Assembly: GCA_900763355.1 (NCBI GenBank) | Contig: CAAFJY010000108.1 | Span: 1 to 35,195 of the forward strand | Source: Clostridia bacterium | GTDB taxonomy: Bacteria > Bacillota > Clostridia > Oscillospirales > Butyricicoccaceae | Direction of reading: 5' to 3' | Length of the DNA: 35,195 nucleotides | In this document: positions 3,693 to 35,145 of the stretch, piece by piece | How positions within the stretch are numbered: position 1 is the first letter of the stretch | Layout of the letters: the number at the start of each line of letters is the position of its first letter | Notes under the pieces: model-generated | What the model saw: the letters and a program-made list of their open reading frames with translations, nothing else | Database searches by the model: none | Told to the model about the DNA's origin: nothing | Position numbers and translations under genes: made by a program

Positions 3693-5345
3693 TTACTGCC
3701 ACGAGAGCTCAATGCCCCGCATATCGTCCAGATAGATGGCGGGGAAATCCTCCGCGGCGAAGGGCTGGACCAGGTCGCAGCCATAGCGCCGGGTGAAGGC
3801 CAGGCCGGTCTCGTTGAGGACGGCGACCTCCATCACCGGATCCTCGCTCTGGTCAGTGACTTCCATGGAATACCACCGGCCCTGGGCCACGGCCAGGGTC
3901 CGGGTCTCCCCGTTCCAGGCGATATTGGGATCGTACAGTCGGATCGGGTAACTATAGTCGTGCAGGTTATACAGCGAGGGGCTCTCCTGCGCGGAGAGGG
4001 TGAGGGCCAGGGCGGGGGCATAGAGCCCGTTTGCCCCCCGGTCCAGGACGGTGACATAGCGTCCCCCGTCCGCCGGGGCCCATTCCGTGACGCCGTCCAC
4101 CGCTTCCCCGCCCCAGCTCTGGGAGAAGAAGACCATGGCCCCGCCGGAGAGGATGGGCTCGATGTTGTCGGGGGTCTCGTCAAAGAGGGGGATCACCTGG
4201 AGCAGCGTCCCGGTGTTGTCAAAGAGGAGCACCCGGCCGCCGGTCTCCTCCCCCGCCCGGCTCTGGGTGAGGACCAGGCGCTGCCCGTCTTCGATATAGG
4301 TGAGGGCGCGGCTCTCCCACCCGGGCTCGCTCTCCCAGCAGAGGACGGGCTCCCCGGCCTTCAGGGTCTTGACCCGGTAGCTGCCGGTGGAAAAGGATTC
4401 GTCGCCTTCCCCCAGGGTATAGTCGATGCGGTAGAGCCCCGGGGCCGCCCCGGAGGAAAAGGGCAGCCGGGTCCCGTCTTCGCTGTCGGCCTCCGCTGCC
4501 AGCCAGAGGGTGTGGTTGTCGGCGATGGAGCAGGCCATGACGTTTGTGGCCGCCCCGGGCAAGCGCGTCCCGCTCTCCAGGCGGGCTCGCAGTTCGCCGG
4601 GGATGGTGCTCCCGTCCTCTGCCAACCAGGAAGCCGGGTCTCCGGACACCAGGTCATAGTCCACCGAGCAGGGGGCGCCCACGCCGTTGAGCTCCACCTT
4701 CACCCGGGCCCAGGCCCCCGCGGGGAGAGCCAGGGAGAACATCCCGGAAAGGGTCCCGTAAAGGTCCGCCACCCGGTTTTCGTCCCGGTCAAAGTCATAG
4801 CTTTCGTGGACCCACAGGTCCCCCAGATCCAGCCCCAGGGTCATGGGCAGCGCGTCGTAATAGTCCGCCAGCGGGAAATAGCGCACCACGGTGTCCCCCG
4901 GGGCGGCGTCCTTCGCCGCTTCCTCCACCAGGGGCCAGATGATGCCCAAAAAGGAGGAGGACGTCAGCTGATCTTTGGTAAAGCTGGTGTTGGTGGCCGA
5001 GCCGAAGCTGGACAGCAGGGGATAGCTCAGTTCCAGCCCGGAGGAATAGGGCGAGGGCTCGCTGGGATAGGCCCGGCCCCCGGCCTCGTAGCGGAGGGCG
5101 GTCTCGGCATCCACATTTTCCGCCGGGCGGCCGGAGACGTCCCAGCCCAGCTCGCCGTTGGTGCTGCCCAGGATCATCCCCAGGGAAAAGCGCAGCCCCC
5201 GGGCGGCTTCCGGGTCGCCGCTCTCCCCGGTGGAATAAAACCGGGGATGATCCTCCCGGGCGGAGAGGACGATCTGCCCTCCCGCCAGGGCTCCCGCCCC
5301 CAGGAGCGTCAGGGCCAGGCACAGGGCGAGACATTTTTTCAGCAT
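3693..5345 (-). CDS. Secreted hypothetical protein (550 aa), last gene of the GntR/ABC operon
   Basis: N-terminal signal peptide MLKKCLALCLALTLLGAGALAGG. A GGAGGAG RBS lies upstream of the ATG at 5345. The amino-acid composition is balanced. I recognise no family. Confidence 0.7.
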   Translation of the reverse strand: MLKKCLALCLALTLLGAGALAGGQIVLSAREDHPRFYSTGESGDPEAARGLRFSLGMILGSTNGELGWDVSGRPAENVDAETALRYEAGGRAYPSEPSPYSSGLELSYPLLSSFGSATNTSFTKDQLTSSSFLGIIWPLVEEAAKDAAPGDTVVRYFPLADYYDALPMTLGLDLGDLWVHESYDFDRDENRVADLYGTLSGMFSLALPAGAWARVKVELNGVGAPCSVDYDLVSGDPASWLAEDGSTIPGELRARLESGTRLPGAATNVMACSIADNHTLWLAAEADSEDGTRLPFSSGAAPGLYRIDYTLGEGDESFSTGSYRVKTLKAGEPVLCWESEPGWESRALTYIEDGQRLVLTQSRAGEETGGRVLLFDNTGTLLQVIPLFDETPDNIEPILSGGAMVFFSQSWGGEAVDGVTEWAPADGGRYVTVLDRGANGLYAPALALTLSAQESPSLYNLHDYSYPIRLYDPNIAWNGETRTLAVAQGRWYSMEVTDQSEDPVMEVAVLNETGLAFTRRYGCDLVQPFAAEDFPAIYLDDMRGIELSWQ

Positions 5346-7966: not shown

Positions 7967-8009
7967 TAGTCCGTCAAAAACTGAACAGGGCATGATCCGT
8001 CATCGGCGT

Positions 8010-8200
8010 CCGTTGAAAAGCGGGCGCTCAAAAGGAATCCGGTGAGAATCCGGAGCTTAGTTCCGTTAGCTGTATGTATTGGAGCCCGCATCCCGCGGCG
8101 AAAGCCGGCCATTGTGCCCCTCTGGGCGCGAGAAGGTGGGGGTGCGTGCGCGGAGAAGGATTTCTCCATAGGATACGAGCCAGAAGACTTGGTGGTGGGG
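8010..8200 (+). promoter_or_regulatory. Cobalamin riboswitch aptamer (long form with peripheral extension)
   Basis: Core sequence AAAAGGAATCCGGTGAGAATCCGGAGC..TTCCGTTAGCTGTA at 8030-8074. Extension elements are GCCATTG (8109-8115) and GCGAGAAGG (8128-8136). A B12-box-like GAGCCAGAAGACTTGG lies at 8177-8192. The order and spacing match my memory of the Rfam Cobalamin consensus. The boundaries are approximate. Confidence 0.8.
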
Positions 8201-8292
8201 CAGAAACCGCATTTTCCGGGCAGTTTTCCGGCCATGCGGTGCGCGCGGAGAGCGATCATGCACCAAAACACAGAGAACGCGGAAAAAACACG

Positions 8293-8326
8293 GCTGCGGC
8301 GAGAGTGATCTCGCCGCAGCTTTTTG
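8293..8326 (+). terminator. Intrinsic terminator (expression platform of riboswitch 1)
   Basis: GCTGCGGCGAGA gtga TCTCGCCGCAGC forms a perfect 12-bp stem (8293-8304 / 8309-8320), followed by TTTTTGTTTT. It lies 58 nt upstream of the ATG at 8384. Confidence 0.85.
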
Positions 8327-15690: not shown

Positions 15691-15835
15691 CGGAGCACCG
15701 CGCGGCGCCGCGGTGAAGGGACCGGAAGCGGCAGAGCTCCTTCCGGGCCTTTCAGGACGACGCCGAAGCCCTTTTTCGGGGGCAGGTCATCGTGTTTTTA
15801 CCTTTTTACGCAAAAAATCACCACAGGGAGCGTTT

Positions 15836-18800
15836 ATGAACGGATTTTGGAAAAACAAATGGATCCAGCGGGGGGCCTGTGCCCTTTTGTGTATCGGGAT
15901 GCTCCTGGCGGCCTTTTTGGCCGGCGGGGGAGAAAGCCTGGGGCCCAAGGCCCCTCAGCCCGGGGAACAGCAGAGTCTGGAGCTCCTCACCGGGGGCGAG
16001 TCCGCTGCACAGACGACCGGGACCGGCGGCACCTCTGCCAGTGACAGCGCCGGCCCCGGCAGCGGCGGAGAGGGGGACGATCCCGCTCCCGACACTCCGC
16101 CCGACCCGGACGGGACTCAGGATCCCGCCCCCGTGACGCCCGAGCCCGACAACACCCAGACGCCCGGCGACGCCCCCGACCCCGACAGCGGGGACGCGCC
16201 CCAGCCCTCCGCCTCCGACGCCCGGGATCCCGGCCAGACCAACGGCACCACCGTGGACACCGATGAGCCCGGTTCCCTGGACACCCCGGACGACACCGGG
16301 ACCCAGGGGGGCGACGACAGCACGCTGGACCTGGGGGCCGTCTTCACCTGGCAGAAATATGGCCGGGAGGACAGCACCATCGTCTGCGACCCCGGAGGAC
16401 GGGTGCGGCGGACGGTTTTGTGGAACCAGGTCCCCGGCGGGCGGCTGGAATATGAGGTCGCCCTCTTCGGCGACGACGCCATCTATGCGGAACTCGAGTC
16501 CCTCCGCTTTTCCGAGGGGAACGGCCGGGCCCAGGAGCTGGACCCCTTTGGCCGGGTCACCCTGGAGCGCCGGGAGGACGGCGCGCGCAATTATATCTTC
16601 ACCGTTACCGCCCGGGTGGAAAAGCCCGGGGAAAATGACCAGAGCCGGACGGAGACCGTCACCTTTACCTTTGTCATCCGCTACCAGGATGGACTGGATC
16701 TGGAGCTGGAGCTGGACTGGACCCGCAGCGGGAGCCTTTCCACCATCCGGGTGGCCGCCGACGGGGCGGCCCGGCGGACGGTGCTGGGCAGCGAGCTGAC
16801 TGAGGGGGCCTTCCGCTATTCCCTCTCCCTCACGGGGGAGAGCGCGACCGACGGGGAGATCCTCTCGGCGGAATATTCCGCCGACGGGGGAGAAGGCGGC
16901 GCGCTGGATACGGAGAGCGGCACCCTGACTCTCACCCCCGGGGCCGACGGGACCCGGGAATACACCCTCCTCATCACCGCCCTGGTGGATGACGGGGGCG
17001 AGGAGCGCACCGTCACCTTCACCGTCACCCTGGACTACCAGGCCGGAGTGGATCTTCGGCTCATTCTCACCTGGCAATACCGGGGCATCACTCCCCGCAC
17101 GGCGGAGTGCCAGCCCGATAGCCGCGCTGCCCTCACCATCAAGCAGAATCAGCTCAGCCGGGGCGAGCTGCTTTATGCGCTGGATCTGGAGGGCGAAAGC
17201 GCGCCCCGGGCGCATCTGCTGTCCGCCAGCCTGGAGGGCCCCGGCGGCAGCCAGGATCTCTCCGACCGGGGGAGCGCCACCCTCTCTCTGCCAGAGGGGC
17301 AGACCGAGAGCGCCTATGTCCTCCGGGCCCGGGCGCTCCTGGAGGATACCGGGCGGGAGGTCTCCTTCGCCTTCCGCCTGACCTACACCGCCGACGCGGC
17401 CATGACCATGGAATATACCCTCCTGGCGGAGGGGCAGCCCCAGACCGTCACCCTATCCTGTGAAAACGGGCGGACGGTCACCGCCGAGCGCATCTATTCC
17501 GACCAGCTGACCGAGGACACCCTCCCGGTCTCCTTCCTCCTGACGGGGGAGGGGATGACCATCGAGCGCATCACCCTCTACCAGAGCGGCAGCGGGCGGG
17601 AGCGCACCCTGGCCCAGAGCCCCGGCAGCCTGTGGAACGGGGAAGCCCTCCTTCTCACCGACGGGGAGCGGGAGGGGGAGAACCGCTTCACCGTCTCGGC
17701 CCGGGATGGGGAGGGAACAGCCTATACCTTCACCTTCCATCTCCCCTTTATCCGCCGGGGAAACAAGACCATCGACATCGAGACCAATCTCCCGGAGGAT
17801 CGCACCATCCGCAACGAGACCGATTATGACCTCCGCATCCGCGCCCGGACGATGGAGGCCGATGGAAGCGTCTTTGCCGTCATCCGCGCCAACGGCGTGA
17901 CCCTCACCCTGGACGGGGAAAAGCTGGAATATACCGGCGCTTCCGGCGAATGGCTGCAATACAAGCTCTATGCCAAAAATCCCCCGGAGGGGGACGACAA
18001 TACCCACATCCTGGTCATCCACGCCCGGGATGACTACGGCAACGAAAAGACCGAGACCTATGAGCTCCTGGGTCAGCGCACCGAGGATGGGCAGAAGATC
18101 GGCACGGCCCATATCTACATCGACATGAGCGCCCTGGGCTTGGGGACCACCTCCCGCATCGCCTATGACGTGCTCTCCGGGGAGCCCATCTCCTATGTGG
18201 TGGCCAAGGCCGTCTGGGGCTATGACGCCGGGGAGCCCTACGGCACCGCCCGGGAGACCTTTGGCTGGGACGAGAGCGACTGCTCCTATGGCGGAAAGCT
18301 GGACCAGGGCTTCTACCTGGCCGCCATGGGGGACGGCTCGGACCTGAGCACCCGGGCCAAGGCCCTCTCCGGCGACTGGCGGGACTTTGGCAGCACCGAG
18401 GAGGAGATCCTGGCCGCCATCGACCGGCGCTTCGGCGCGGGCAGCGGCATGGCCGCCCTCTGGCGGTGCATCTACCGCAACGGCATCGAGCTGCGCAGCT
18501 GGGACGATCCCCACACCGTGGGGGAGTTTGACTTCACCAACGGCTCCGGCTGGCTCTATCAGCTGGACGGGGAGTTTTATCCCGGCTCATCCATGTCGGA
18601 CTACACCCTCCAGGATGGGTCGGTCCTGGTGCTGCGCTACACCCTGGCCTATGGCTGGGACGTGAGCGAGGGGCTGGACGGAAATCAGGGAAACACGGTG
18701 GGCTACTGCGCCCGGGCCATCAACGGCCGCATCCAGGTGAATCATCGGGTGGAGGACGGCGTCTGCGTCTCCTGCGGTCTCCGCATGGGGGACTGCACCC

Positions 18801-19459
18801 ACGACAATGCCTTCTATCGGGACAACGGCGACGGCACCTGCGGCCTCTATTGTCCCGACTGCGGGGAGTATATTCAGGATCTGGAGCCCCACGACTGGGC
18901 CTATTCCTGGGAGCCCGGCAGCGAGAAGCACACCATGACCTGCCAGAACTGCGGCGCGGTGGAGCATGAGAAGCATCTGCTGCTCGACAAAAACAATACC
19001 GCCACCTGTACCGAGCCCGGTACGGCCATCTTCTCCTGCCACATCTGCGGTATGGAAGAGGAGCGGGAGACCCCGGCCCTGGGGCATGAGACGGGAGACA
19101 GCTGGCAGATCTCCGGCCAGCAGCACTGGAAGCAGTGCGATCGCTGCCACGAGGAGCTGGAAGGCACCCGTGCCGACCATGATTATCAGTACAACGCCCA
19201 TTCCGGGACCTGGATCTGCGCCGAATGCCTTGCAGTCCACGCCTGGGAATGCGGCGACGGCGCGCTGGAGCTGGTCCCCGAAGAAAGCAGCAGTACGTGC
19301 CGCGTCTGGCGCTGCCCCCACTGCGGCCTGACGCTGGAGCAGGAGGGGGATTTCTCTCCGGAGGAGCCCGATCTCCCGCCCCCGGATCCCGATCCCGGCC
19401 CGGAGGGCCCGGAGGATCCCGACGCTTCCGGCGGCGACCCGCCGGAAGATGGGGAATGA
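15836..19459 (+). CDS. Membrane-tethered (N-terminal TM) extracellular repeat protein with DUF4430-like module and Cys-rich CxxC-repeat tail (1207 aa)
   Basis: ORF 15713..19459 trimmed to MNGFWKNKWIQRGACALLCIGMLLAAFLAGGG (ATG at 15836 behind AGGGAG). Segments in order:
- D/P/T/G-rich linker at ~16000-16320.
- About five tandem ~115-aa beta-sandwich-like modules at ~16325-18070.
- DUF4430-like segment at ~18107-18662, ending GWLYQLDGEFYPGSSMSDYTLQDGSVLVLRYT.
- Seven CxxC motifs at ~18740-19350.
- Acidic, Pro-rich C-terminus. Confidence 0.85.
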   Translation: MNGFWKNKWIQRGACALLCIGMLLAAFLAGGGESLGPKAPQPGEQQSLELLTGGESAAQTTGTGGTSASDSAGPGSGGEGDDPAPDTPPDPDGTQDPAPVTPEPDNTQTPGDAPDPDSGDAPQPSASDARDPGQTNGTTVDTDEPGSLDTPDDTGTQGGDDSTLDLGAVFTWQKYGREDSTIVCDPGGRVRRTVLWNQVPGGRLEYEVALFGDDAIYAELESLRFSEGNGRAQELDPFGRVTLERREDGARNYIFTVTARVEKPGENDQSRTETVTFTFVIRYQDGLDLELELDWTRSGSLSTIRVAADGAARRTVLGSELTEGAFRYSLSLTGESATDGEILSAEYSADGGEGGALDTESGTLTLTPGADGTREYTLLITALVDDGGEERTVTFTVTLDYQAGVDLRLILTWQYRGITPRTAECQPDSRAALTIKQNQLSRGELLYALDLEGESAPRAHLLSASLEGPGGSQDLSDRGSATLSLPEGQTESAYVLRARALLEDTGREVSFAFRLTYTADAAMTMEYTLLAEGQPQTVTLSCENGRTVTAERIYSDQLTEDTLPVSFLLTGEGMTIERITLYQSGSGRERTLAQSPGSLWNGEALLLTDGEREGENRFTVSARDGEGTAYTFTFHLPFIRRGNKTIDIETNLPEDRTIRNETDYDLRIRARTMEADGSVFAVIRANGVTLTLDGEKLEYTGASGEWLQYKLYAKNPPEGDDNTHILVIHARDDYGNEKTETYELLGQRTEDGQKIGTAHIYIDMSALGLGTTSRIAYDVLSGEPISYVVAKAVWGYDAGEPYGTARETFGWDESDCSYGGKLDQGFYLAAMGDGSDLSTRAKALSGDWRDFGSTEEEILAAIDRRFGAGSGMAALWRCIYRNGIELRSWDDPHTVGEFDFTNGSGWLYQLDGEFYPGSSMSDYTLQDGSVLVLRYTLAYGWDVSEGLDGNQGNTVGYCARAINGRIQVNHRVEDGVCVSCGLRMGDCTHDNAFYRDNGDGTCGLYCPDCGEYIQDLEPHDWAYSWEPGSEKHTMTCQNCGAVEHEKHLLLDKNNTATCTEPGTAIFSCHICGMEEERETPALGHETGDSWQISGQQHWKQCDRCHEELEGTRADHDYQYNAHSGTWICAECLAVHAWECGDGALELVPEESSSTCRVWRCPHCGLTLEQEGDFSPEEPDLPPPDPDPGPEGPEDPDASGGDPPEDGE

Positions 19460-28757: not shown

Positions 28758-28792
28758 GCCCCTGCGGCAAAGTGCCGCAGGGGCATTTTTTC
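28758..28792 (+). terminator. Rho-independent terminator ending the 8.4-28.7 kb gene string
   Basis: GCCCCTGCGGCA aagt GCCGCAGGGGC followed by ATTTTTTCT. It lies 14 nt after the stop at 28744. Confidence 0.85.
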
Positions 28793-28834: not shown

Positions 28835-28863
28835 TTGACAACCGGGCAAAACCGCGATATAGT
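28835..28863 (+). promoter_or_regulatory. Promoter of the riboswitch-2/ECF operon (TTGACA-17 nt-TATAGT)
   Basis: TTGACA at 28835-28840, a 17-nt spacer, then TATAGT at 28858-28863. It sits in a locally AT-richer patch. Confidence 0.65.
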
Positions 28864-28878
28864 AAGATGAATCTTCAG

Positions 28879-28995
28879 GCATATCGCGCCCTGCGGCCCG
28901 GCCGCCGGCGGAATGGGGTGAAAGTCCCCGCGAGTAGGTCACTGTGAAGCCCGGTCCCTCCCGGGATAAGTCAGATACGCCGCGCGCGCGATCCA
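28879..28995 (+). promoter_or_regulatory. Cobalamin riboswitch aptamer (compact form, no long peripheral extension)
   Basis: P1 candidate is ATCGCGC (28884-28890) pairing with GCGCGAT (28987-28993). Core sequence is GGAATGGGGTGAAAGTCCCCGCGAGTAGGTCACTGTGA at 28910-28947. A short hairpin CCCGGtccctcCCGGG follows. A B12-box-like AAGTCAGATACGCC lies at 28968-28981. Confidence 0.8.
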
Positions 28996-29037: not shown

Positions 29038-29071
29038 CCGCGCAAGCCCCCCTCGGGCTGCGCGGTTTTTT
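29038..29071 (+). terminator. Intrinsic terminator (expression platform of riboswitch 2)
   Basis: CCGCGCA(A)GCCC ccctc GGGCTGCGCGG followed by TTTTTT (29066-29071). It lies ~40 nt upstream of the ATG at 29113. Confidence 0.8.
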
Positions 29072-29112: not shown

Positions 29113-30720
29113 ATGAAAAACAAACTGTGGAGCCGGGGGCTGAGTCTGGTTCTGGCTCTGGCTCTCTGCGCGGGACTGTGGTTCCCTGCCGGGGCCGAGA
29201 CGGCCCCCGTGGACCGGACGGCCCGCTATGTGATGAATACCGTTCAGACCCCCGCGGCGGGGAACATCGGCGGCGAGTGGGCGGCCCTGGGCCTGGCCCG
29301 CTGGGGCGGCGAAGCCCCCTCCGGCTGGTTCGAGACCTATTATCAGGCCGTGGAGGCCCATGTGAAGGAGACCTCCGGTATTCTTCATAAGAAAAAATAC
29401 ACCGAGTATTCGCGGACCGTGGTGGCCCTCACCGCCATGGGCAAGGATCCCCGGAACGTGGCGGGCTATGACCTGCTGCGCCCCCTGGGGGACTATGAAA
29501 AGGTCCTCTGGCAGGGGATCAACGGCCCCATCTGGGCCCTCATCGCCCTGGACAGCGGGGACTATGAGATCCCGGAAAACACCGATGCCGCCACCCAGGC
29601 CACCCGTCAGATGTATGTGGATCACTTGCTGGAAAAGCAGCTTCCCTCCGGGGGCTGGGCCCTCTCCGGCACCGAGCCCGATGCCGACATCACCGCCATG
29701 GCTCTCCAGGCTCTGGCCCGCTACACCGGACAGAGCGCCGTGCAGAGCGCCGTGCAGAGTGCCGTGACCTGGCTTTCCGCCGCCCAGGGCAAGGAGGATG
29801 GGGCCTATCTTTCCTATGGCACCGCCAACGCCGAGAGCTGCGCCCAGGTGGTGGTGGCTCTTTGCGCCCTGGGCATCGACCCCGCAGAGGACGCCCGCTT
29901 TGCCAAAAACGGCAGGACGGTGGAGGACGCCCTCCTTTCCTTCCAGCGGGCCGACGGGAGCTTCCATCACATCCTCACCGACAGCGGCAACCAGATGGCA
30001 ACCGAACAGGGCTTTTATGCCCTGGTGGCGCTTCAGCGTCTGCGGGACGGACGGCCCGCCCTCTATACCATGACCGACCGGCCCGGCGGCCCGGATGTGC
30101 CCAAGGGCCTGGACAACAAGGACCCGGAGGTCCAGGGCCGGCCCCTGGTATCCCCCAAGATCGACTTTTCGGACCTGAGCGGCCACAGTGACCGGGAGGC
30201 CATCCTGGCTCTCGCCCGCCGGGGCATCATCAACGGCACCGGCGACGGCGCCTTCGCGCCGGAGGGGAACATGACCCGGGCGGCCTTTGCCGCCATCATC
30301 ACCCGGGGTCTGGGCCTGAGCGGCAAGGAGACCGGGGACTTCTCCGACGTCCCCGCCGGGAGCTGGTACGCCGCCCCTGTGGGGAAGGCTGCGGAAAAGG
30401 GCATCGTCCAGGGTGTGGGCGGGGGCAAGTTCAACCCCGCCGGCACCATCACCCGGCAGGAAGCCGCCGTCATGCTTTCCCGTGCCGCCGTGCTCTGCGG
30501 CCTGGATACCGGGATGACGGAGGAAGAAGTCTCTGCCGCCCTGGCCCGGTTCAGCGACGGCGGGAGCGTGGCCTCCTGGGCTCGGAGCTCCCTGGCCTGG
30601 TGCGCCGACAACGGGCTCACCCAGGGCTGGGAGACGCTGGAGCCCACCACCCCCATCCTGCGGGCCGAGGTGGCCCGGATGCTGGCCGTTTTGCTGAAAA
30701 ACGCCGCTCTTTTGGGATAA
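29113..30720 (+). CDS. Secreted alpha/alpha-toroid (prenyltransferase / terpene-cyclase-like repeat) protein with three C-terminal SLH repeats
   Basis: GGAAAGGAG RBS upstream. Signal peptide MKNKLWSRGLSLVLALALCAGLWFPAGA. Toroid-type repeats span ~29200-30060 (GGEWAALGLARWG, INGPIWALIALDSG, LPSGGWALSG, DITAMALQALARY, CAQVVVALCALG, ADGSFHH, EQGFYALVAL). SLH repeats span ~30160-30715 (FSDLSGHSDREAILALARRGIINGTGDGAFAP.., FSDVPAGSWYAAPV..). Confidence 0.8.
   Translation: MKNKLWSRGLSLVLALALCAGLWFPAGAETAPVDRTARYVMNTVQTPAAGNIGGEWAALGLARWGGEAPSGWFETYYQAVEAHVKETSGILHKKKYTEYSRTVVALTAMGKDPRNVAGYDLLRPLGDYEKVLWQGINGPIWALIALDSGDYEIPENTDAATQATRQMYVDHLLEKQLPSGGWALSGTEPDADITAMALQALARYTGQSAVQSAVQSAVTWLSAAQGKEDGAYLSYGTANAESCAQVVVALCALGIDPAEDARFAKNGRTVEDALLSFQRADGSFHHILTDSGNQMATEQGFYALVALQRLRDGRPALYTMTDRPGGPDVPKGLDNKDPEVQGRPLVSPKIDFSDLSGHSDREAILALARRGIINGTGDGAFAPEGNMTRAAFAAIITRGLGLSGKETGDFSDVPAGSWYAAPVGKAAEKGIVQGVGGGKFNPAGTITRQEAAVMLSRAAVLCGLDTGMTEEEVSAALARFSDGGSVASWARSSLAWCADNGLTQGWETLEPTTPILRAEVARMLAVLLKNAALLG
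29731..29766 (+). repeat. In-frame 12-bp tandem repeat x3 (CAGAGCGCCGTG), encoding (QSAV)3
   Basis: The DNA reads cagagcgccgtg cagagcgccgtg cagagtgccgtg. The third unit has one mismatch. Confidence 0.9.
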
Positions 30721-30762
30721 AACCGCCCCCGAGGGGCATTTCCCGGGAAATCGGAGGAAATT

Positions 30763-31590
30763 ATGTGGAAAAAATATAAAAAGCCCATCCTGGCCGGGGT
30801 CGTCATCCTGGCAGTGCTGGCTGCGGCCTTTTTCCTGGGGGGGAGCCCCGAAAAAGGGACCACCCAGGGGAATGCCGGGAATCCCCAGAACGAGGTGCAG
30901 GACCCGTCCCTTTCCGGGAATGAACTCCCTTCGGACGATCCTTCCGACCCCGTGACTCCGGACACGCCGGACCCCAGCGGGGAGGAAACGCCCGAAACGC
31001 CCGACGCACCGGAAACACCGGAAACACCGGGAACACCCGAGCCGCCCGCCGTTTCTGATTCGGGCGGGCATCCCGGTGCAGGCCAGGAGGCGCAGGATCC
31101 ATATCACACCGACCCCGTCCCGGCGGGCAAGCCGCAGCCGGTGGAGCCCCAGGATCAGGAGACCGGCGGCAGCATCACCGTCACCGTCTCCATCTCCTGC
31201 GCCACCATTTTGGACAATATGGATCTGTGCGACGCAGACAAAAAAGAGCTTGTCCCGGAGGACGGGTGGATCCTAAAGCCCGTCTCCGTGGAAGCCCAGG
31301 AGGGGGAGAGCGCCTTCTCCCTCCTCCAGCGGGTGTGCAAGGATAAAAAGATCCACATGGAGTTCTCCATGACCCCCATCTACAATTCCGCCTATATCGA
31401 GGGCATAGGGAATCTCTATGAGTTCGATGTGGGCAAGGAATCGGGCTGGATGTTCCGGGTCAACGACTGGTTCCCCAACTATGGGTGCAGCCGTTATGTC
31501 CTGAAGGACGGGGACACGGTGGAGTGGGTCTATACCTGCGACCTGGGCAAGGATGTGGGCGGCGGACAGGCCGTCCAGTCCGAAAGCTGA
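30763..31590 (+). CDS. Membrane-tethered DUF4430 (transcobalamin-like C-terminal domain) protein
   Basis: GGAGGA RBS upstream. N-terminal TM helix MWKKYKKPILAGVVILAVLAAAFFLGG, then a Pro/Thr/Glu linker. The domain starts ITVTVSISCATILDN and ends with the hallmark GWMFRVNDWFPNYGCSRYVLKDGDTVEWVYT. Confidence 0.85.
   Translation: MWKKYKKPILAGVVILAVLAAAFFLGGSPEKGTTQGNAGNPQNEVQDPSLSGNELPSDDPSDPVTPDTPDPSGEETPETPDAPETPETPGTPEPPAVSDSGGHPGAGQEAQDPYHTDPVPAGKPQPVEPQDQETGGSITVTVSISCATILDNMDLCDADKKELVPEDGWILKPVSVEAQEGESAFSLLQRVCKDKKIHMEFSMTPIYNSAYIEGIGNLYEFDVGKESGWMFRVNDWFPNYGCSRYVLKDGDTVEWVYTCDLGKDVGGGQAVQSES
30984..31040 (+). repeat. Degenerate 9-bp tandem repeats encoding the (P-E/D-T/A) linker ETPETPDAPETPETPGTPEP
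   Basis: The DNA reads gaaacgccc gaaacgccc gacgcaccg gaaacaccg gaaacaccg ggaacaccc gag. Confidence 0.8.
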
Positions 31591-31597
31591 GGGCCCC

Positions 31598-32494
31598 ATG
31601 GAGGGAAGAGACAGCTTTTCCGGGTATCATCCCGCCGTCAATCTGCTCTATTACTGCCTGGTGCTGGGGATCACCATGTTCCACCTCCACCCGGCGTTCC
31701 TGGCCGTCTCCCTGGTGGGGGCGGCCAGCTATTGTGTCCGCCTGCGGGGGAAAAAGACCCTGCGGGGGATGCTTTTGGGCGTGGTGCCCATGATGCTCCT
31801 GGCGGCGGTGGTCAACCCCGCCTTCAATCACCAGGGGGTCACCATCCTCACCTATCTCCCCTCCGGCAACCCGCTGACGCTGGAATCCATCCTCTATGGG
31901 CTCACTGCGGCGGAGATGCTGGCGGCGGTCATCCTCTGGTTCGTCACCTTCCAGGAGGTGATGAGCTCCGACAAGTTTGTCTATCTTTTCGGGCGGGCGG
32001 CGCCGGCGCTGTCCCTGGTGCTGTCCATGACCCTGCGCTTTGTCCCCAAGCTGCGGGACCAGGGGAAGCGGGTCATCCTGGCCCAGCGGTGCGCCGGGCG
32101 GGATCTGTCCCAGGGGAGCCTTTTTCAGCGGGCAAAATTGGCGGTGACGGTCTTTTCCATCCTGGTGACCTGGAGCCTGGAAAACGCCATCGAGACCGCC
32201 GACAGCATGAAGAGCCGGGGCTATGGCCTCCCCGGGCGGACGGCCTTTTCCATCTACCGGCTGGACAGCCGGGACCGGGCCATGCTGGGCTGGCTGAGCT
32301 TCTGCGGGGTCTATCTCCTCTCCGGCTGGGCCGTGGGAGGGATGGATTTCCGCTTTTATCCCACCCTCCGGGCTTCTCAGTGGTCGCCCTGGACGGTGAG
32401 CTTTCTTTTGGTGTATCTGGCCCTGTGCCTGACACCGTGTATTCTTGACAGAAGGGAGCGTGCCCTATGGCAGCGATCGAGCTCCGGGACCTGA
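31598..32494 (+). CDS. ecfT: ECF transporter transmembrane (T) component, CbiQ/EcfT family
   Basis: ORF 31553..32494 trimmed to MEGRDSFSGYHPAVNLLYY (ATG at 31598, 8 nt after the DUF4430 stop). The protein is multi-pass with Arg-containing coupling-type motifs (ILAQRCAGRD, ADSMKSRGYG). It is followed by, and overlaps, the ECF-type ATPase gene. Confidence 0.75.
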   Translation: MEGRDSFSGYHPAVNLLYYCLVLGITMFHLHPAFLAVSLVGAASYCVRLRGKKTLRGMLLGVVPMMLLAAVVNPAFNHQGVTILTYLPSGNPLTLESILYGLTAAEMLAAVILWFVTFQEVMSSDKFVYLFGRAAPALSLVLSMTLRFVPKLRDQGKRVILAQRCAGRDLSQGSLFQRAKLAVTVFSILVTWSLENAIETADSMKSRGYGLPGRTAFSIYRLDSRDRAMLGWLSFCGVYLLSGWAVGGMDFRFYPTLRASQWSPWTVSFLLVYLALCLTPCILDRRERALWQRSSSGT

Positions 32495-35103
32495 GCTTCA
32501 CCTATCCCCTCCAGAGCCGACCGGCCCTGGAGCATCTCTCGCTGACGGTAGAACCGGGGGATTTTTTGGTGCTGTGCGGCCCCTCCGGCTGCGGGAAATC
32601 CACCCTTCTCCGTCAGCTCAAGACCGTTCTGGCCCCCCACGGGACCCGCACGGGCGAAATTCTCATCGAGGGCGTTCCCCTGGATTCCCTGGATCTCCGG
32701 GCCCAGAGCGAGACCGTCGGCTTCGTCCAGCAGAGCCCCGACAACCAGCTGGTCACCGACAAGGTTTGGCACGAGCTGGCCTTTGGCCTGGAGAGCCTGG
32801 GCTATGACACCCCCACCATCCGCCGCCGGGTGGCGGAGATGGCCTCCTTTTTCGGCATCCAGACCTGGTTCCACCGGGAGGTGAGCCAGCTCTCCGGGGG
32901 ACAGAAGCAGCTGCTCAACCTGGCGGCGGTGATGGTTATGCAGCCCCGGATCCTGGTGCTGGACGAGCCCACCAGCCAGCTGGACCCCATTGCCGCGGCC
33001 GATTTCCTGGCCACTCTGGGGAAGATCAACCGGGAGCTGGGGACCACCGTGATTTTGACCGAGCACCGGCTGGAGGACGCCCTCCCCCAGGCCACCCGGG
33101 CCGCCGCCATGGACGGCGGACGGCTCATCGCCTGCGGCACTCCCGCCCAGGTGGGGGAGGCCCTTCAGGGGGCCGGACACCGGATGTTTCTCGCCATGCC
33201 CACCCCCATGCGGGTGTGGGCCGCCGCCGGGGGGCAGGGAGACTGCCCCATCACCGTGCGGGAGGGCCGCCGCTGGCTGGAAGCCTTCGCACAAAACAAT
33301 CCCCTGCGCCCTCTCCCTCCCGCGGAGACGCAGCCCCCTGTGGGGGATGCGGTCCTCTCGGCGGAGGAGGTCTGGTTCCGTTATGAGCCGCAGGGACCCG
33401 ATGTGGTCCGTGGCCTGAGTCTGGAGCTCCGGCGGGGGGAGCTTTTGGCGCTTTTGGGGGGCAACGGCACGGGGAAGAGCACCAGTCTCCGTCTCCTGGC
33501 GGGGATCAGCAAGCCCCAGCGGGGAACGATCACCTGCCGGGGGACGGTGGGCGTTCTGCCCCAGGACCCCCAGACACTTTTCGTCAAAAAGACCGTGCGG
33601 GAGGATCTCTTCGAGATGCTTCCCAAACAGACCGACCGGCGGGAGGAACGGGCCGCCCGGGTTGCAGCCCTCTGCCAGCTGGAGGAGCTGCTGGACCGGC
33701 ACCCCTATGACCTCTCCGGCGGGGAGCAGCAGCGGGCCGCTCTGGCGAAAATTCTGCTGCTGGAACCCGATATTTTGCTCCTGGACGAGCCCACCAAGGG
33801 GCTGGACGCCGCCTTTAAGGAGGGCTTTGCCCAAATTCTCCGCCAGCTCCAGGCCGAGGGCCGCGCCATCCTCATGGTGAGCCACGACGTGGAGTTCTGC
33901 GCCCGCAACGCCGGGCGCTGCGCCCTCTTTTTCGATGGGGGTATCGTCACCCAGGGCCCGGCCCGGGCCTTTTTCTCCGGAAACAGCTTTTACACCACCG
34001 CCGCCGACCGGATGGGGCGCAGCGTCTGCCCCGGCGCCGTCACGGCGGAGGATCTCATGACCGTCTGCGGGGGCCAGGTGCCCCCCAGGCCCCCTCTGCG
34101 GGAGGATATCCCGCCCCTGCCCCCGCCGGCTCCCGAGACGGCCGACTGGAAGCCCCGGAAGCTCCCCCTCTGGCGGCGGGCGGTGGCCGCGGTGTCCGGG
34201 GGAGCGGCGCTCGCCATTTTTGCCTATGCCCTCAGCGTCACCGACCTGTCCCAGGTGGTGGGGCCGCAGGGACTGACGGCACTCAGCCGGAGCCAGGCGG
34301 CGCTGTACGGCGGGCTCATCCTGGCCCTCTTTGTCTTTGCCGCGGCGGTGAGCCGCAAAAGCGCCCTGCCCCCCGCGGTGCTCCAGATCCCCAAAGAAAA
34401 GCGGAAGCTGGGCAAGCGCACGGCAGCGGCCATGGGGCTCATTCTGCTGCTCATCCCCCTCACCCTCTTTGTGGGGGTGACCTATCTGGGCGGGCGGAAG
34501 TACTATTTCATCGCGCTGCTGATTTTGCTGGAGGCCATGCTCCCCTTTTTTCTGGTGTTCGAGGGGCGCAAGCCCCAGGCCCGGGAGCTGGTGGTCATCG
34601 CCGTCCTCTGTGCCCTCACCGTGGCGGGACGGGCCATGTTCTTCATGCTGCCGGAGTTCAAGCCGGTGGTTGCCATGACCATCCTGGCCGGGGTGGCCTT
34701 TGGGGGCGAGACGGGATTTTTGGTGGGGGCCATGTCCATGCTGGTGTCCAATATGCTCTTTTCCCAGGGGCCCTGGACCCCGTGGCAGATGTTCGCCATG
34801 GGGATCATCGGCTTCCTGGCCGGGGTGCTCTACCGCCGGGGGCTGCTGCGCCGCAGCCGGGGGAGTTTGTGCATTTTCGGGGCCATCGTCTCGGTGGTGG
34901 TCTATGGGGGGATCATGAACCCCGCCTCGGCCATTATGTGGACGGGGACGCTGGACGGCAAGACCCTGCTGACCTATTACCTCACCGGTGTCCCCGTGGA
35001 CCTGGTGCGGGGAGCGGCCACCGCCCTCTTCCTCTGGATCGGGGGCGAGCCCCTGCTGGAAAAGCTCGACCGCATCAAGGTCAAATACGGGCTGGTGGAA
35101 TAA
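32467..35103 (+). CDS. Fused ECF ATPase: tandem ABC nucleotide-binding domains (EcfA1-EcfA2-like) plus a C-terminal ~9-10-TM, S-component-like membrane domain (878 aa)
   Basis: NBD1 has GPSGCGKST, LSGGQKQ and ILVLDEPTSQLD. NBD2 (from ~33355) has GGNGTGKST, LSGGEQQR and ILLLDEPTKGLD. The membrane domain runs from ~34150; it includes LVVIAVLCALTVAGRAMFFML, MLFSQGPWTPWQMFAMGIIGFLAG, and a C-terminal LVRGAATALFLWIGGEPLL. The gene starts 28 nt inside ecfT. Confidence 0.85.
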   Translation: MAAIELRDLSFTYPLQSRPALEHLSLTVEPGDFLVLCGPSGCGKSTLLRQLKTVLAPHGTRTGEILIEGVPLDSLDLRAQSETVGFVQQSPDNQLVTDKVWHELAFGLESLGYDTPTIRRRVAEMASFFGIQTWFHREVSQLSGGQKQLLNLAAVMVMQPRILVLDEPTSQLDPIAAADFLATLGKINRELGTTVILTEHRLEDALPQATRAAAMDGGRLIACGTPAQVGEALQGAGHRMFLAMPTPMRVWAAAGGQGDCPITVREGRRWLEAFAQNNPLRPLPPAETQPPVGDAVLSAEEVWFRYEPQGPDVVRGLSLELRRGELLALLGGNGTGKSTSLRLLAGISKPQRGTITCRGTVGVLPQDPQTLFVKKTVREDLFEMLPKQTDRREERAARVAALCQLEELLDRHPYDLSGGEQQRAALAKILLLEPDILLLDEPTKGLDAAFKEGFAQILRQLQAEGRAILMVSHDVEFCARNAGRCALFFDGGIVTQGPARAFFSGNSFYTTAADRMGRSVCPGAVTAEDLMTVCGGQVPPRPPLREDIPPLPPPAPETADWKPRKLPLWRRAVAAVSGGAALAIFAYALSVTDLSQVVGPQGLTALSRSQAALYGGLILALFVFAAAVSRKSALPPAVLQIPKEKRKLGKRTAAAMGLILLLIPLTLFVGVTYLGGRKYYFIALLILLEAMLPFFLVFEGRKPQARELVVIAVLCALTVAGRAMFFMLPEFKPVVAMTILAGVAFGGETGFLVGAMSMLVSNMLFSQGPWTPWQMFAMGIIGFLAGVLYRRGLLRRSRGSLCIFGAIVSVVVYGGIMNPASAIMWTGTLDGKTLLTYYLTGVPVDLVRGAATALFLWIGGEPLLEKLDRIKVKYGLVE

Positions 35104-35120
35104 AAAAGAAAAAACAAAAA

Positions 35121-35145
35121 GCGGTCCTTCATGGACCGCTTTTTT
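35121..35145 (+). terminator. Rho-independent terminator after the ECF operon
   Basis: An A-rich run, then GCGGTCC ttcat GGACCGC followed by TTTTTT. Confidence 0.85.

Follow-up and report, generated by a model that had tools for sequence, protein, structure and literature searches.

A putative split transcobalamin-like corrinoid binder encoded beside a dedicated energy-coupling factor importer in a Clostridia-type bacterium

Bacterial relatives of animal transcobalamin were described by Burroughs, Balaji, Iyer and Aravind in 2007 as secreted transcobalamin-like SLBB proteins, many of them with an alpha/alpha toroid fused to one side or the other; their operons frequently include CbiO/CbiQ-like genes and a further SLBB paralog, and scavenging of B12 was predicted for them (PMC1796856). 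A split form of this architecture was reported from L. sakei by Verplaetse and colleagues in a 2019 preprint, wherein lsa1836-1840 encode the S, AA' and T components of an energy-coupling factor (ECF) transporter together with separate secreted alpha-like and beta-like transcobalamin homologs, and the authors proposed that Lsa1839/Lsa1840 scavenge a tetrapyrrole (heme) and pass it to the S component (bioRxiv 10.1101/864751). Here we present the computational analysis of a stretch of 35,195 nucleotides from a Clostridia bacterium (contig CAAFJY010000108.1; hereafter the window), in which a cassette of four genes at 29113-35103 on the plus strand encodes a toroid protein with S-layer homology (SLH) repeats (protein 1), a membrane-held DUF4430 protein (protein 2) and an ECF transporter. 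We consider it likely that this cassette is transcribed as a single B12-repressed unit and serves a Gram-positive Clostridia-type bacterium to capture and import corrinoids, a split alpha/beta binder handing its ligand to the ECF transporter.

Two further systems are relevant to this reading. ECF-CbrT of L. delbrueckii (PDB entry 6FNP) transports cobalamin and cobinamide, and hemin is no inhibitor of this transport (PMC5997447). In Bacteroides, the riboswitch-linked surface lipoproteins BtuG, BtuH and BtuJ bind B12 and feed a membrane transporter (PMC6143338, PMC10404256, PMC13616437, PMC8941943). Competition for B12 and other cobamides shapes gut communities. Gram-positive Clostridia dominate the gut, yet the surface capture systems that have been worked out are those of Bacteroides and not theirs.

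The paired surface proteins and their transporter

Both open reading frames of the pair are present where an earlier note, made from the sequence of the window, had placed them (Table 1), and its description of their products as a toroid-type repeat protein with three SLH repeats and a membrane-anchored linker ending in DUF4430 is borne out. Protein 1 starts with a signal peptide (aa 1-28, MKNKLWSRGLSLVLALALCAGLWFPAGA/ET; probable cleavage AGA/ET), which is followed by the toroid at approximately aa 30-320, a linker and three SLH repeats at approximately aa 349-535, the latter matched by Pfam in three stretches (E 9.1e-37). AlphaFold2 modelling of residues 1-345 with 44 homologs gave a predicted local distance difference test score (pLDDT) of 87.2, a predicted template-modelling score (pTM) of 0.83 and 12 helices, and the N-terminal domain so modelled is an alpha6/alpha6 toroid. 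The three SLH repeats, judged by their family match, fix the protein to the cell wall. More than 5676 relatives of the toroid-SLH protein were found, with a column identity of about 55% over the toroid; H92, H286, W56, W133, Y99 and R63 are among the residues that do not vary.

Protein 2 has a basic N-terminus, a hydrophobic segment of 19 residues (aa 8-26), a linker of about 110 aa that is rich in Pro, Thr, Glu and Asp, and the DUF4430 domain, and more than 2000 relatives were found. The kinship of DUF4430 with the beta domain of transcobalamin, asserted beforehand, is upheld by the record of PF14478 on several mammalian transcobalamin-2 proteins as well, and in the literature the family is treated as the transcobalamin C-terminal domain (PMC4350170; PMC1796856). 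Across distant Firmicutes the domain shows 78% mean column identity, far above that of the toroid. No meaningful PDB match was returned for the DUF4430 protein or for its profile. A cysteine is invariant at position 7 of the DUF4430 alignment and nearly invariant at positions 103 and 120; disulfides or cobalt ligation are possible roles of these residues. Most DUF4430 homologs carry a lipobox (consensus LLxGC) in place of the transmembrane segment.

Directly before the DUF4430 domain, split and fused proteins share the motif D-x-Y-x-T-D-P-V-P-E/A-G-K-P-x-P-V-E-P. The rest of the linker is variable, and the retention of this stretch suggests that it makes contact with a partner, such as the toroid, the ligand or the S component.

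The proposal that the two adjacent genes encode the halves of one transcobalamin-like binder is supported by their conserved order (58/62 assessable loci, as detailed below), by a natural fusion and by the presence of DUF4430 on transcobalamin-2, and none of the computational tests that might have overturned it did so. When the DUF4430 alignment was used as a profile against 1.84 billion representative proteins, 8871 representative clusters were matched, 2145 of them at E up to 1e-30. Among these proteins, P0385 (491 aa) joins in a single chain a lipoprotein signal, a toroid, the linker motif DRYQTDPVPEGKPQPVEPEN and a DUF4430 domain; its toroid is 42% identical to that of the window (E 1e-74), and the order from toroid to DUF4430 is that of transcobalamin. 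The larger P0399 (1804 aa) holds two toroids, four DUF4430 domains and three SLH repeats in one chain, and by its domain content can be viewed as a multi-site form of the same binder, strung together and anchored to the wall. In the window, the two genes lie in the same reading frame and are separated by a stop codon and a spacer of 42 nt. The gene of P0385 (locus L087) comes directly after MoxR, DUF58 and transglutaminase genes, as does the toroid gene of Sporobacter (L001); the gene that follows the fusion gene was checked as a candidate ECF component and is not one.

A pseudo-complex was also modelled with AlphaFold2, using a chimera of mature protein 1 and the part of protein 2 after the transmembrane segment with a block-diagonal alignment. 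The toroid was modelled at pLDDT above 90 and the DUF4430 domain at 80-95, with a pTM of 0.50 for the whole, and a Foldseek search with this model returned transcobalamin first (E 2.4e-4). The SLH repeats at residues ~320-507 of the chimera reached a pLDDT of 30-50 despite 42 homologs, which may be an artefact of the chimeric input.

As the earlier note stated, the pair adjoins ECF transporter genes: the genes of the T component and of a fused A-A'-S protein follow directly downstream. The start of the T gene at 31598 is the one called on the source contigs, and its family matches are weak. The fused protein is matched twice by ABC_tran (2.9e-58), by ECF-ribofla_trS (8.6e-13) and by TIGR04520 (7.6e-94). 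Its S domain occupies approximately aa 690-878, and the sole PDB match at E up to 10 was 6fnp_A (E 2.9e-8), a membrane chain of 182 aa that we take, from its length and PDB entry, to be CbrT. A palindromic, bidirectional terminator-like hairpin at 35116-35144 stands directly after the fused gene and marks the 3' end of the cassette.

Table 1. Features of the cassette and of its upstream region in the window.
Feature	Position	Strand	Basis
Classic cobalamin riboswitch	7984..8210	+	RF00174, 56.6 bits; terminator 8292-8321
Intrinsic terminator ending the upstream 20-kb operon	28758..28784	+	12-bp stem, 10 G-C pairs, T run
Promoter-like site of the cassette (TTGACA, 17-nt spacer, TATAGT)	28835..28863	+	11/12 consensus matches
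Compact cobalamin-riboswitch-like aptamer	28880..28995	+	RF00174 10.6 bits; covariation
Leader terminator, putative expression platform	29038..29071	+	11-bp stem, one bulge, T6; read from sequence
Toroid-SLH gene (putative alpha half)	29113..30720	+	Pfam, AlphaFold2 model, Foldseek, homologs; 535 aa
DUF4430 gene (putative beta half)	30763..31590	+	Pfam DUF4430; 275 aa
Conserved linker motif DPYHTDPVPAGKPQPVEPQD	aa 112-131, nt 31096-31155	+	shared with P0385 aa 337-356
DUF4430/SLBB domain	aa 140-270, nt 31180-31572	+	Pfam DUF4430 (PF14478) E 7.5e-18, residues 181-258
ECF T component, CbiQ-like, dedicated	31598..32494	+	Pfam CbiQ 0.0031, TIGR02454 4e-4 (weak)
Fused ECF ATPase A, ATPase A' and CbrT-like S	32467..35103	+	ABC_tran, ECF S families, TIGR04520; 878 aa

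Conservation and cobalamin-responsive control

At least 578 species-level genomes carry the family, among them Oscillospiraceae (Intestinimonas, Flavonifractor plautii, Sporobacter termitidis), Ruminiclostridium, Paenibacillus, Sedimentibacter, Anaerovorax and Proteocatella, and the cassette is conserved across these groups. Conservation was counted over 80 genome loci, with only the loci assessable for a given feature in its denominator. It can be seen that SLH repeats follow the toroid in 72 of 77 loci and that 58 of 62 have a DUF4430 gene no more than 2.2 kb downstream of the toroid gene, with an ECF T gene (46/54) and an ECF ATPase gene (37/44) following. The order toroid-SLH, DUF4430, EcfT and EcfAA'-S is also kept in Sporobacter and in three metagenomic contigs, as read from the gene tables. 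The loci L079 and L019 encode a toroid protein free of SLH repeats, and in L079 the DUF4430 protein is a lipoprotein, exemplifying the lipobox form of the family; a toroid-DUF4430 fusion was ruled out at both, the genes being still split.

Cobalamin riboswitches accompany this gene family. Rfam-grade examples were located on the same strand upstream in L004, L016, L034, L036, L053 (two), L058, L067 and L072. With an nhmmer profile built from ten Rfam-grade cobalamin riboswitches of toroid-gene loci, a same-strand riboswitch was found upstream of the toroid gene in 33 of the 80 loci and in 22 of the 37 whose upstream sequence extends to 9 kb or more; in six loci it stands directly before the toroid gene at a distance of 109-294 nt, and only 2 matches fell on the other strand or downstream. 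In Sporobacter termitidis (L001/L013), a further cobalamin riboswitch at 16505-16808 lies directly downstream of the cassette at the head of another operon, in which a 1666-aa aBig_2/SLH surface protein is encoded; this arrangement suggests that several surface operons under B12 control stand one after another.

The earlier note had placed the pair between a cobalamin riboswitch and ECF genes, of which the ECF side stands and the riboswitch side needs amendment. The only cobalamin riboswitch above the Rfam threshold in the window, at 7984-8210, lies 21 kb upstream of the cassette and controls the operon at 8324-28744, not the cassette directly; the intrinsic terminator at 28758-28784 separates the two. 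The cassette has its own promoter-like site, comparable to one before the leader in L072, and a leader of about 250 nt, in which the nearer aptamer-like element scores below the Rfam cut-off. This element carries the core motifs GGAAUGGGGUGAAAGUCCCC, GGUCACUGUGA and AAGUCAGAUAC, including a GGUGAxA loop, CACUG and a B12-box-like AGUCAGAUAC, along with covarying helices and an expression platform. Five compact elements (from the window, L072, L076 and two from L034) were aligned, and 9 of the 18 consensus pairs showed compensatory changes. The element is probably a compact variant of the cobalamin riboswitch, as its motifs and covariation suggest, and is not an Rfam member by score; the homologous element of L072 likewise scores 12.1 bits against the RF01482 threshold of 50. 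Owing to its bulge, the leader terminator is missed by a simple terminator scan. The leader as a whole was no more stable than expected on minimum-free-energy folding (z = 0.59).

The compact elements measure about 110 nt and were located at 1350-1460 in L072, at 4160-4275 and 4405-4520 in L034, and at 4955-5062 in L076. In L072 the compact element is in tandem with a classic riboswitch, L034 has two tandem copies, and in L076 it lies directly before the toroid gene and is followed by a terminator. Such elements may represent an under-modelled variant of the cobalamin aptamer.

The operon at 8324-28744 encodes a 2425-aa SLH/Big_2 surface protein, a 1248-aa protein free of Pfam matches, a MoxR AAA ATPase, a DUF58-like protein, a transglutaminase-like protein and a 1573-aa cadherin-like/PQQ-type beta-propeller protein. 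The MoxR-DUF58-transglutaminase trio, which directly precedes the toroid gene in Sporobacter (L001) and the fusion gene in L087, is separated from the toroid gene in the window by the 1573-aa gene. The beta-propeller of this protein was examined for similarity to BtuG, and only PQQ-type quinoprotein dehydrogenases were matched. Residues ~920-985 of the 1248-aa protein (15713-19459) form a second DUF4430/SLBB-like domain, which matched the family profile at E 1e-8 and was missed by Pfam. Giant upstream proteins with DUF4430 and SLH were also observed elsewhere, namely a 1355-aa protein in L019 and a 2505-aa protein in L003.

Proposed mechanism and its alternatives

In the mechanism that we favor, scarcity of corrinoid would leave the leader aptamer unliganded, permitting read-through of the leader terminator and expression of the cassette, so that the element would act as an OFF switch. 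Protein 1 would be secreted and held in the cell wall by its SLH repeats, displaying the alpha/alpha toroid, and protein 2 would stay attached to the membrane through its N-terminal anchor, in the place of which most relatives have a lipid anchor, and would present the DUF4430/SLBB beta-grasp domain on its flexible linker of about 110 residues. The toroid and the DUF4430 domain would serve as alpha and beta halves with one corrinoid sandwiched between them. From the tethered beta half the corrinoid would go to the CbrT-like S domain, and the dedicated ECF transporter (T plus A-A'-S) would import it at the expense of ATP. A corrinoid is favored as the ligand because CbrT (6fnp_A) is the only PDB match of the S domain and because cobalamin riboswitches lie upstream at loci of the family.

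Several observations weigh against this reading, among them those on the affinity of the toroid, which fold and profile searches place no closer to transcobalamin than to class II terpene cyclases. In the Foldseek search of the PDB with the toroid model, class II terpene cyclases came first (E 6.9e-5, query-normalised TM-score 0.47-0.51), slightly ahead by E-value of transcobalamin 4zrp_B at rank 12 (E 5.5e-4), and prenyltransferase beta subunits and GH105/UGL enzymes followed, toroid families scoring alike. The structural likeness to transcobalamin that the earlier note had proposed to look for is present in that the query-normalised TM-score of transcobalamin, 0.55, is the highest of the top 25 matches; the precedence by E-value belongs to the cyclases. 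When the PDB was searched by sequence, using the toroid protein and two profiles, squalene-hopene cyclases (best 5.5e-10) and drimenyl-diphosphate cyclases were found, and transcobalamin was never among their matches. Pfam PF01122 (Cobalamin_bind) does not match protein 1 of the window and matches 2 of 36 family members weakly (best E 0.0072). Comparison by hhalign of the toroid with human TCN2, in a sequence equal to PDB 7qbf_A over all 409 aligned residues, and with an alignment of 22 TCN2 sequences (probability <1% for the latter) was not significant, a comparison of low power because the DUF4430 positive control failed too and the alignments had an effective sequence number (Neff) of about 2.

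Further points of the same bearing concern the other parts of the model. In the Foldseek search with the chimeric model (pTM 0.50), only the alpha domain was aligned, over about 315 columns with a target-normalised TM-score of 0.47. Protein 2 of the window has no lipobox cysteine, so its tethering depends on an uncleaved signal segment. The leader aptamer, at 10.6 bits, is below the RF00174 gathering cut-off of 31.5. The only experimental study of a split relative, that from L. sakei, points to heme and not B12 (bioRxiv 10.1101/864751). B12 binding and the heterodimeric clamp are what we infer from the domains and their pairing.

A rather unlikely alternative is that both proteins bind corrinoid independently of each other and form no clamp, the toroid-SLH protein acting as a wall reservoir or as a receptor for B12 carriers of the host or of other origin, and the DUF4430 protein acting as the substrate-binding protein of the ECF transporter. 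The isolated beta domain of transcobalamin binds cobalamin, and many DUF4430 proteins occur with no adjacent toroid, the 8871 clusters being mostly of the anchor-linker-DUF4430 type. The DUF4430-like domain within the 1248-aa protein of the window and the far higher conservation of DUF4430 relative to the toroid are consistent with such independence as well. However, the tight pairing of the two genes at 58 of 62 loci, and fusions of exactly a toroid and a DUF4430 domain in the order of transcobalamin, weigh against it.

Less probable still is the same architecture with heme or another non-corrin tetrapyrrole as its ligand, as proposed for Lsa1836-1840. In L. sakei, where the separate alpha-like and beta-like proteins adjoin the ECF transporter in the same manner, a deletion mutant was made to test heme uptake and heme was accommodated in docking (bioRxiv 10.1101/864751), and heme ECF transporters such as LhaSTA exist (PMC7299338). 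Against this, the cassette family is tied to same-strand cobalamin riboswitches, and the sole solved relative of the S domain is CbrT, the transport of which hemin does not inhibit (PMC5997447). Moreover, the window showed no genes of Fur type or with a relation to heme, and the L. sakei study is the single source of the heme proposal.

It is very improbable that protein 1 is an extracellular envelope-acting enzyme, be it a terpene cyclase, a prenyltransferase or an (alpha/alpha)6 glycosidase, and that its genomic proximity to DUF4430 and ECF genes has a cause other than ligand binding. In favor of such an enzyme stand the leading cyclases and the GH105/UGL enzymes in the Foldseek list, the 5.5e-10 profile match and the Pfam match to SQHop_cyclase_C (E 1.2e-6), which consists of short repeat matches only and at 28.2 bits just exceeds the cut-off of 26.1; SQHop_cyclase_N and Prenyltrans are weaker and each under its own cut-off. 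Against it, the cyclase profile signal derives from one generic query repeat (profile positions 162-257) weakly matching six different repeats of squalene-hopene cyclase, secretion and SLH anchoring keep the protein apart from isoprenoid diphosphate substrates, and the toroid is fused to DUF4430 in P0385 and P0399. Opposite the catalytic DVDDT, the window has DADIT and the family consensus DPDIT; the third Asp is thus replaced by Ile and no intact DxDD is present. With DxDD absent and transcobalamin 4zrp_B matched, the protein departs from the cyclase with an intact active site and no transcobalamin similarity that the earlier note had named as its counter-case.

Coming back to the split corrinoid binder, it is tentatively possible that the pair is only the final station of a much larger surface apparatus under B12 control in Gram-positive Clostridia of the gut. 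Proteins of the upstream operon, the wall-fixed alpha half and the beta half on its long tether would together make up a multi-protein extracellular relay for corrinoids, in which the tethered beta domain would physically carry the corrinoid through the wall zone to the CbrT-like S domain. On the same tentative footing, animal transcobalamin may have its bacterial source in this lineage.

Significance and comparison with known systems

To our knowledge, no family member has been characterised biochemically, and we know of no characterised extracellular binder for CbrT. The family is nevertheless widespread and has cultivable carriers, among them Flavonifractor plautii, Intestinimonas, Sporobacter and Paenibacillus. 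If the pair is indeed a split transcobalamin, it would offer a testable model for how importers of the ECF-CbrT type obtain corrinoids through a thick wall, and would make the proposed bacterial origin of animal transcobalamin accessible to experiment. As a binder of B12 that comes naturally in two pieces it could also be a useful tool, and the question of B12 versus heme raised by the work on L. sakei would be settled. Among the papers searched, none was found to connect DUF4430 and toroid proteins with SLH or riboswitch control.

Transcobalamin, intrinsic factor and haptocorrin (PF01122 plus PF14478) combine, as the window pair does, an alpha6/alpha6 toroid with a beta-grasp SLBB/DUF4430 domain outside the cell, and dedicated corrinoid capture for a membrane uptake system, their function, is proposed here for the window. 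The animal proteins are single polypeptides delivered through endocytic receptors, whereas the window encodes two polypeptides with anchors of their own (SLH or membrane) and, in our proposal, an ECF transporter as the destination; the window toroid also stays under the PF01122 threshold.

Among bacterial systems, the window shares the features described by Burroughs and colleagues, including a second SLBB-like domain, which is found here in the 1248-aa protein. Their text stresses fusions rather than a split alpha/beta gene pair, and contains no SLH anchoring ('s-layer' has 0 occurrences), riboswitch control or CbrT-type S component (PMC1796856). Lsa1839/1840 with the ECF components Lsa1836-1838 are likened to the window by their description, namely adjacent separate exported alpha-like and beta-like genes with ECF T, ATPase and S; they differ in that heme is proposed as the ligand and the proteins are described as soluble. 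The window stands apart from them by its SLH anchoring, the long tether of the beta half, the fusion of S to the ATPases and the association with cobalamin riboswitches.

ECF-CbrT has a homologous S domain and likewise works with a T component and two ATPases (6FNP; PMC5997447). There, a free S component shares the common ECF module, whereas the module in the window is dedicated, its S domain is fused to A-A' and two surface proteins are co-encoded. The Bacteroides proteins BtuG, BtuH and BtuJ are a functional analogy, with unrelated folds, a Gram-negative outer membrane and the TonB-dependent BtuB; the multi-protein relay considered above would be analogous to theirs and unrelated in fold.

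Overall, the concept is already published, having been predicted in 2007 and extended to a split form in 2019, and the window instantiates this published prediction. What appears new, as read from the window, is the SLH-anchored alpha half, the long tether of the beta half, the S domain fused to the ATPases and a putative dual cobalamin-responsive control.

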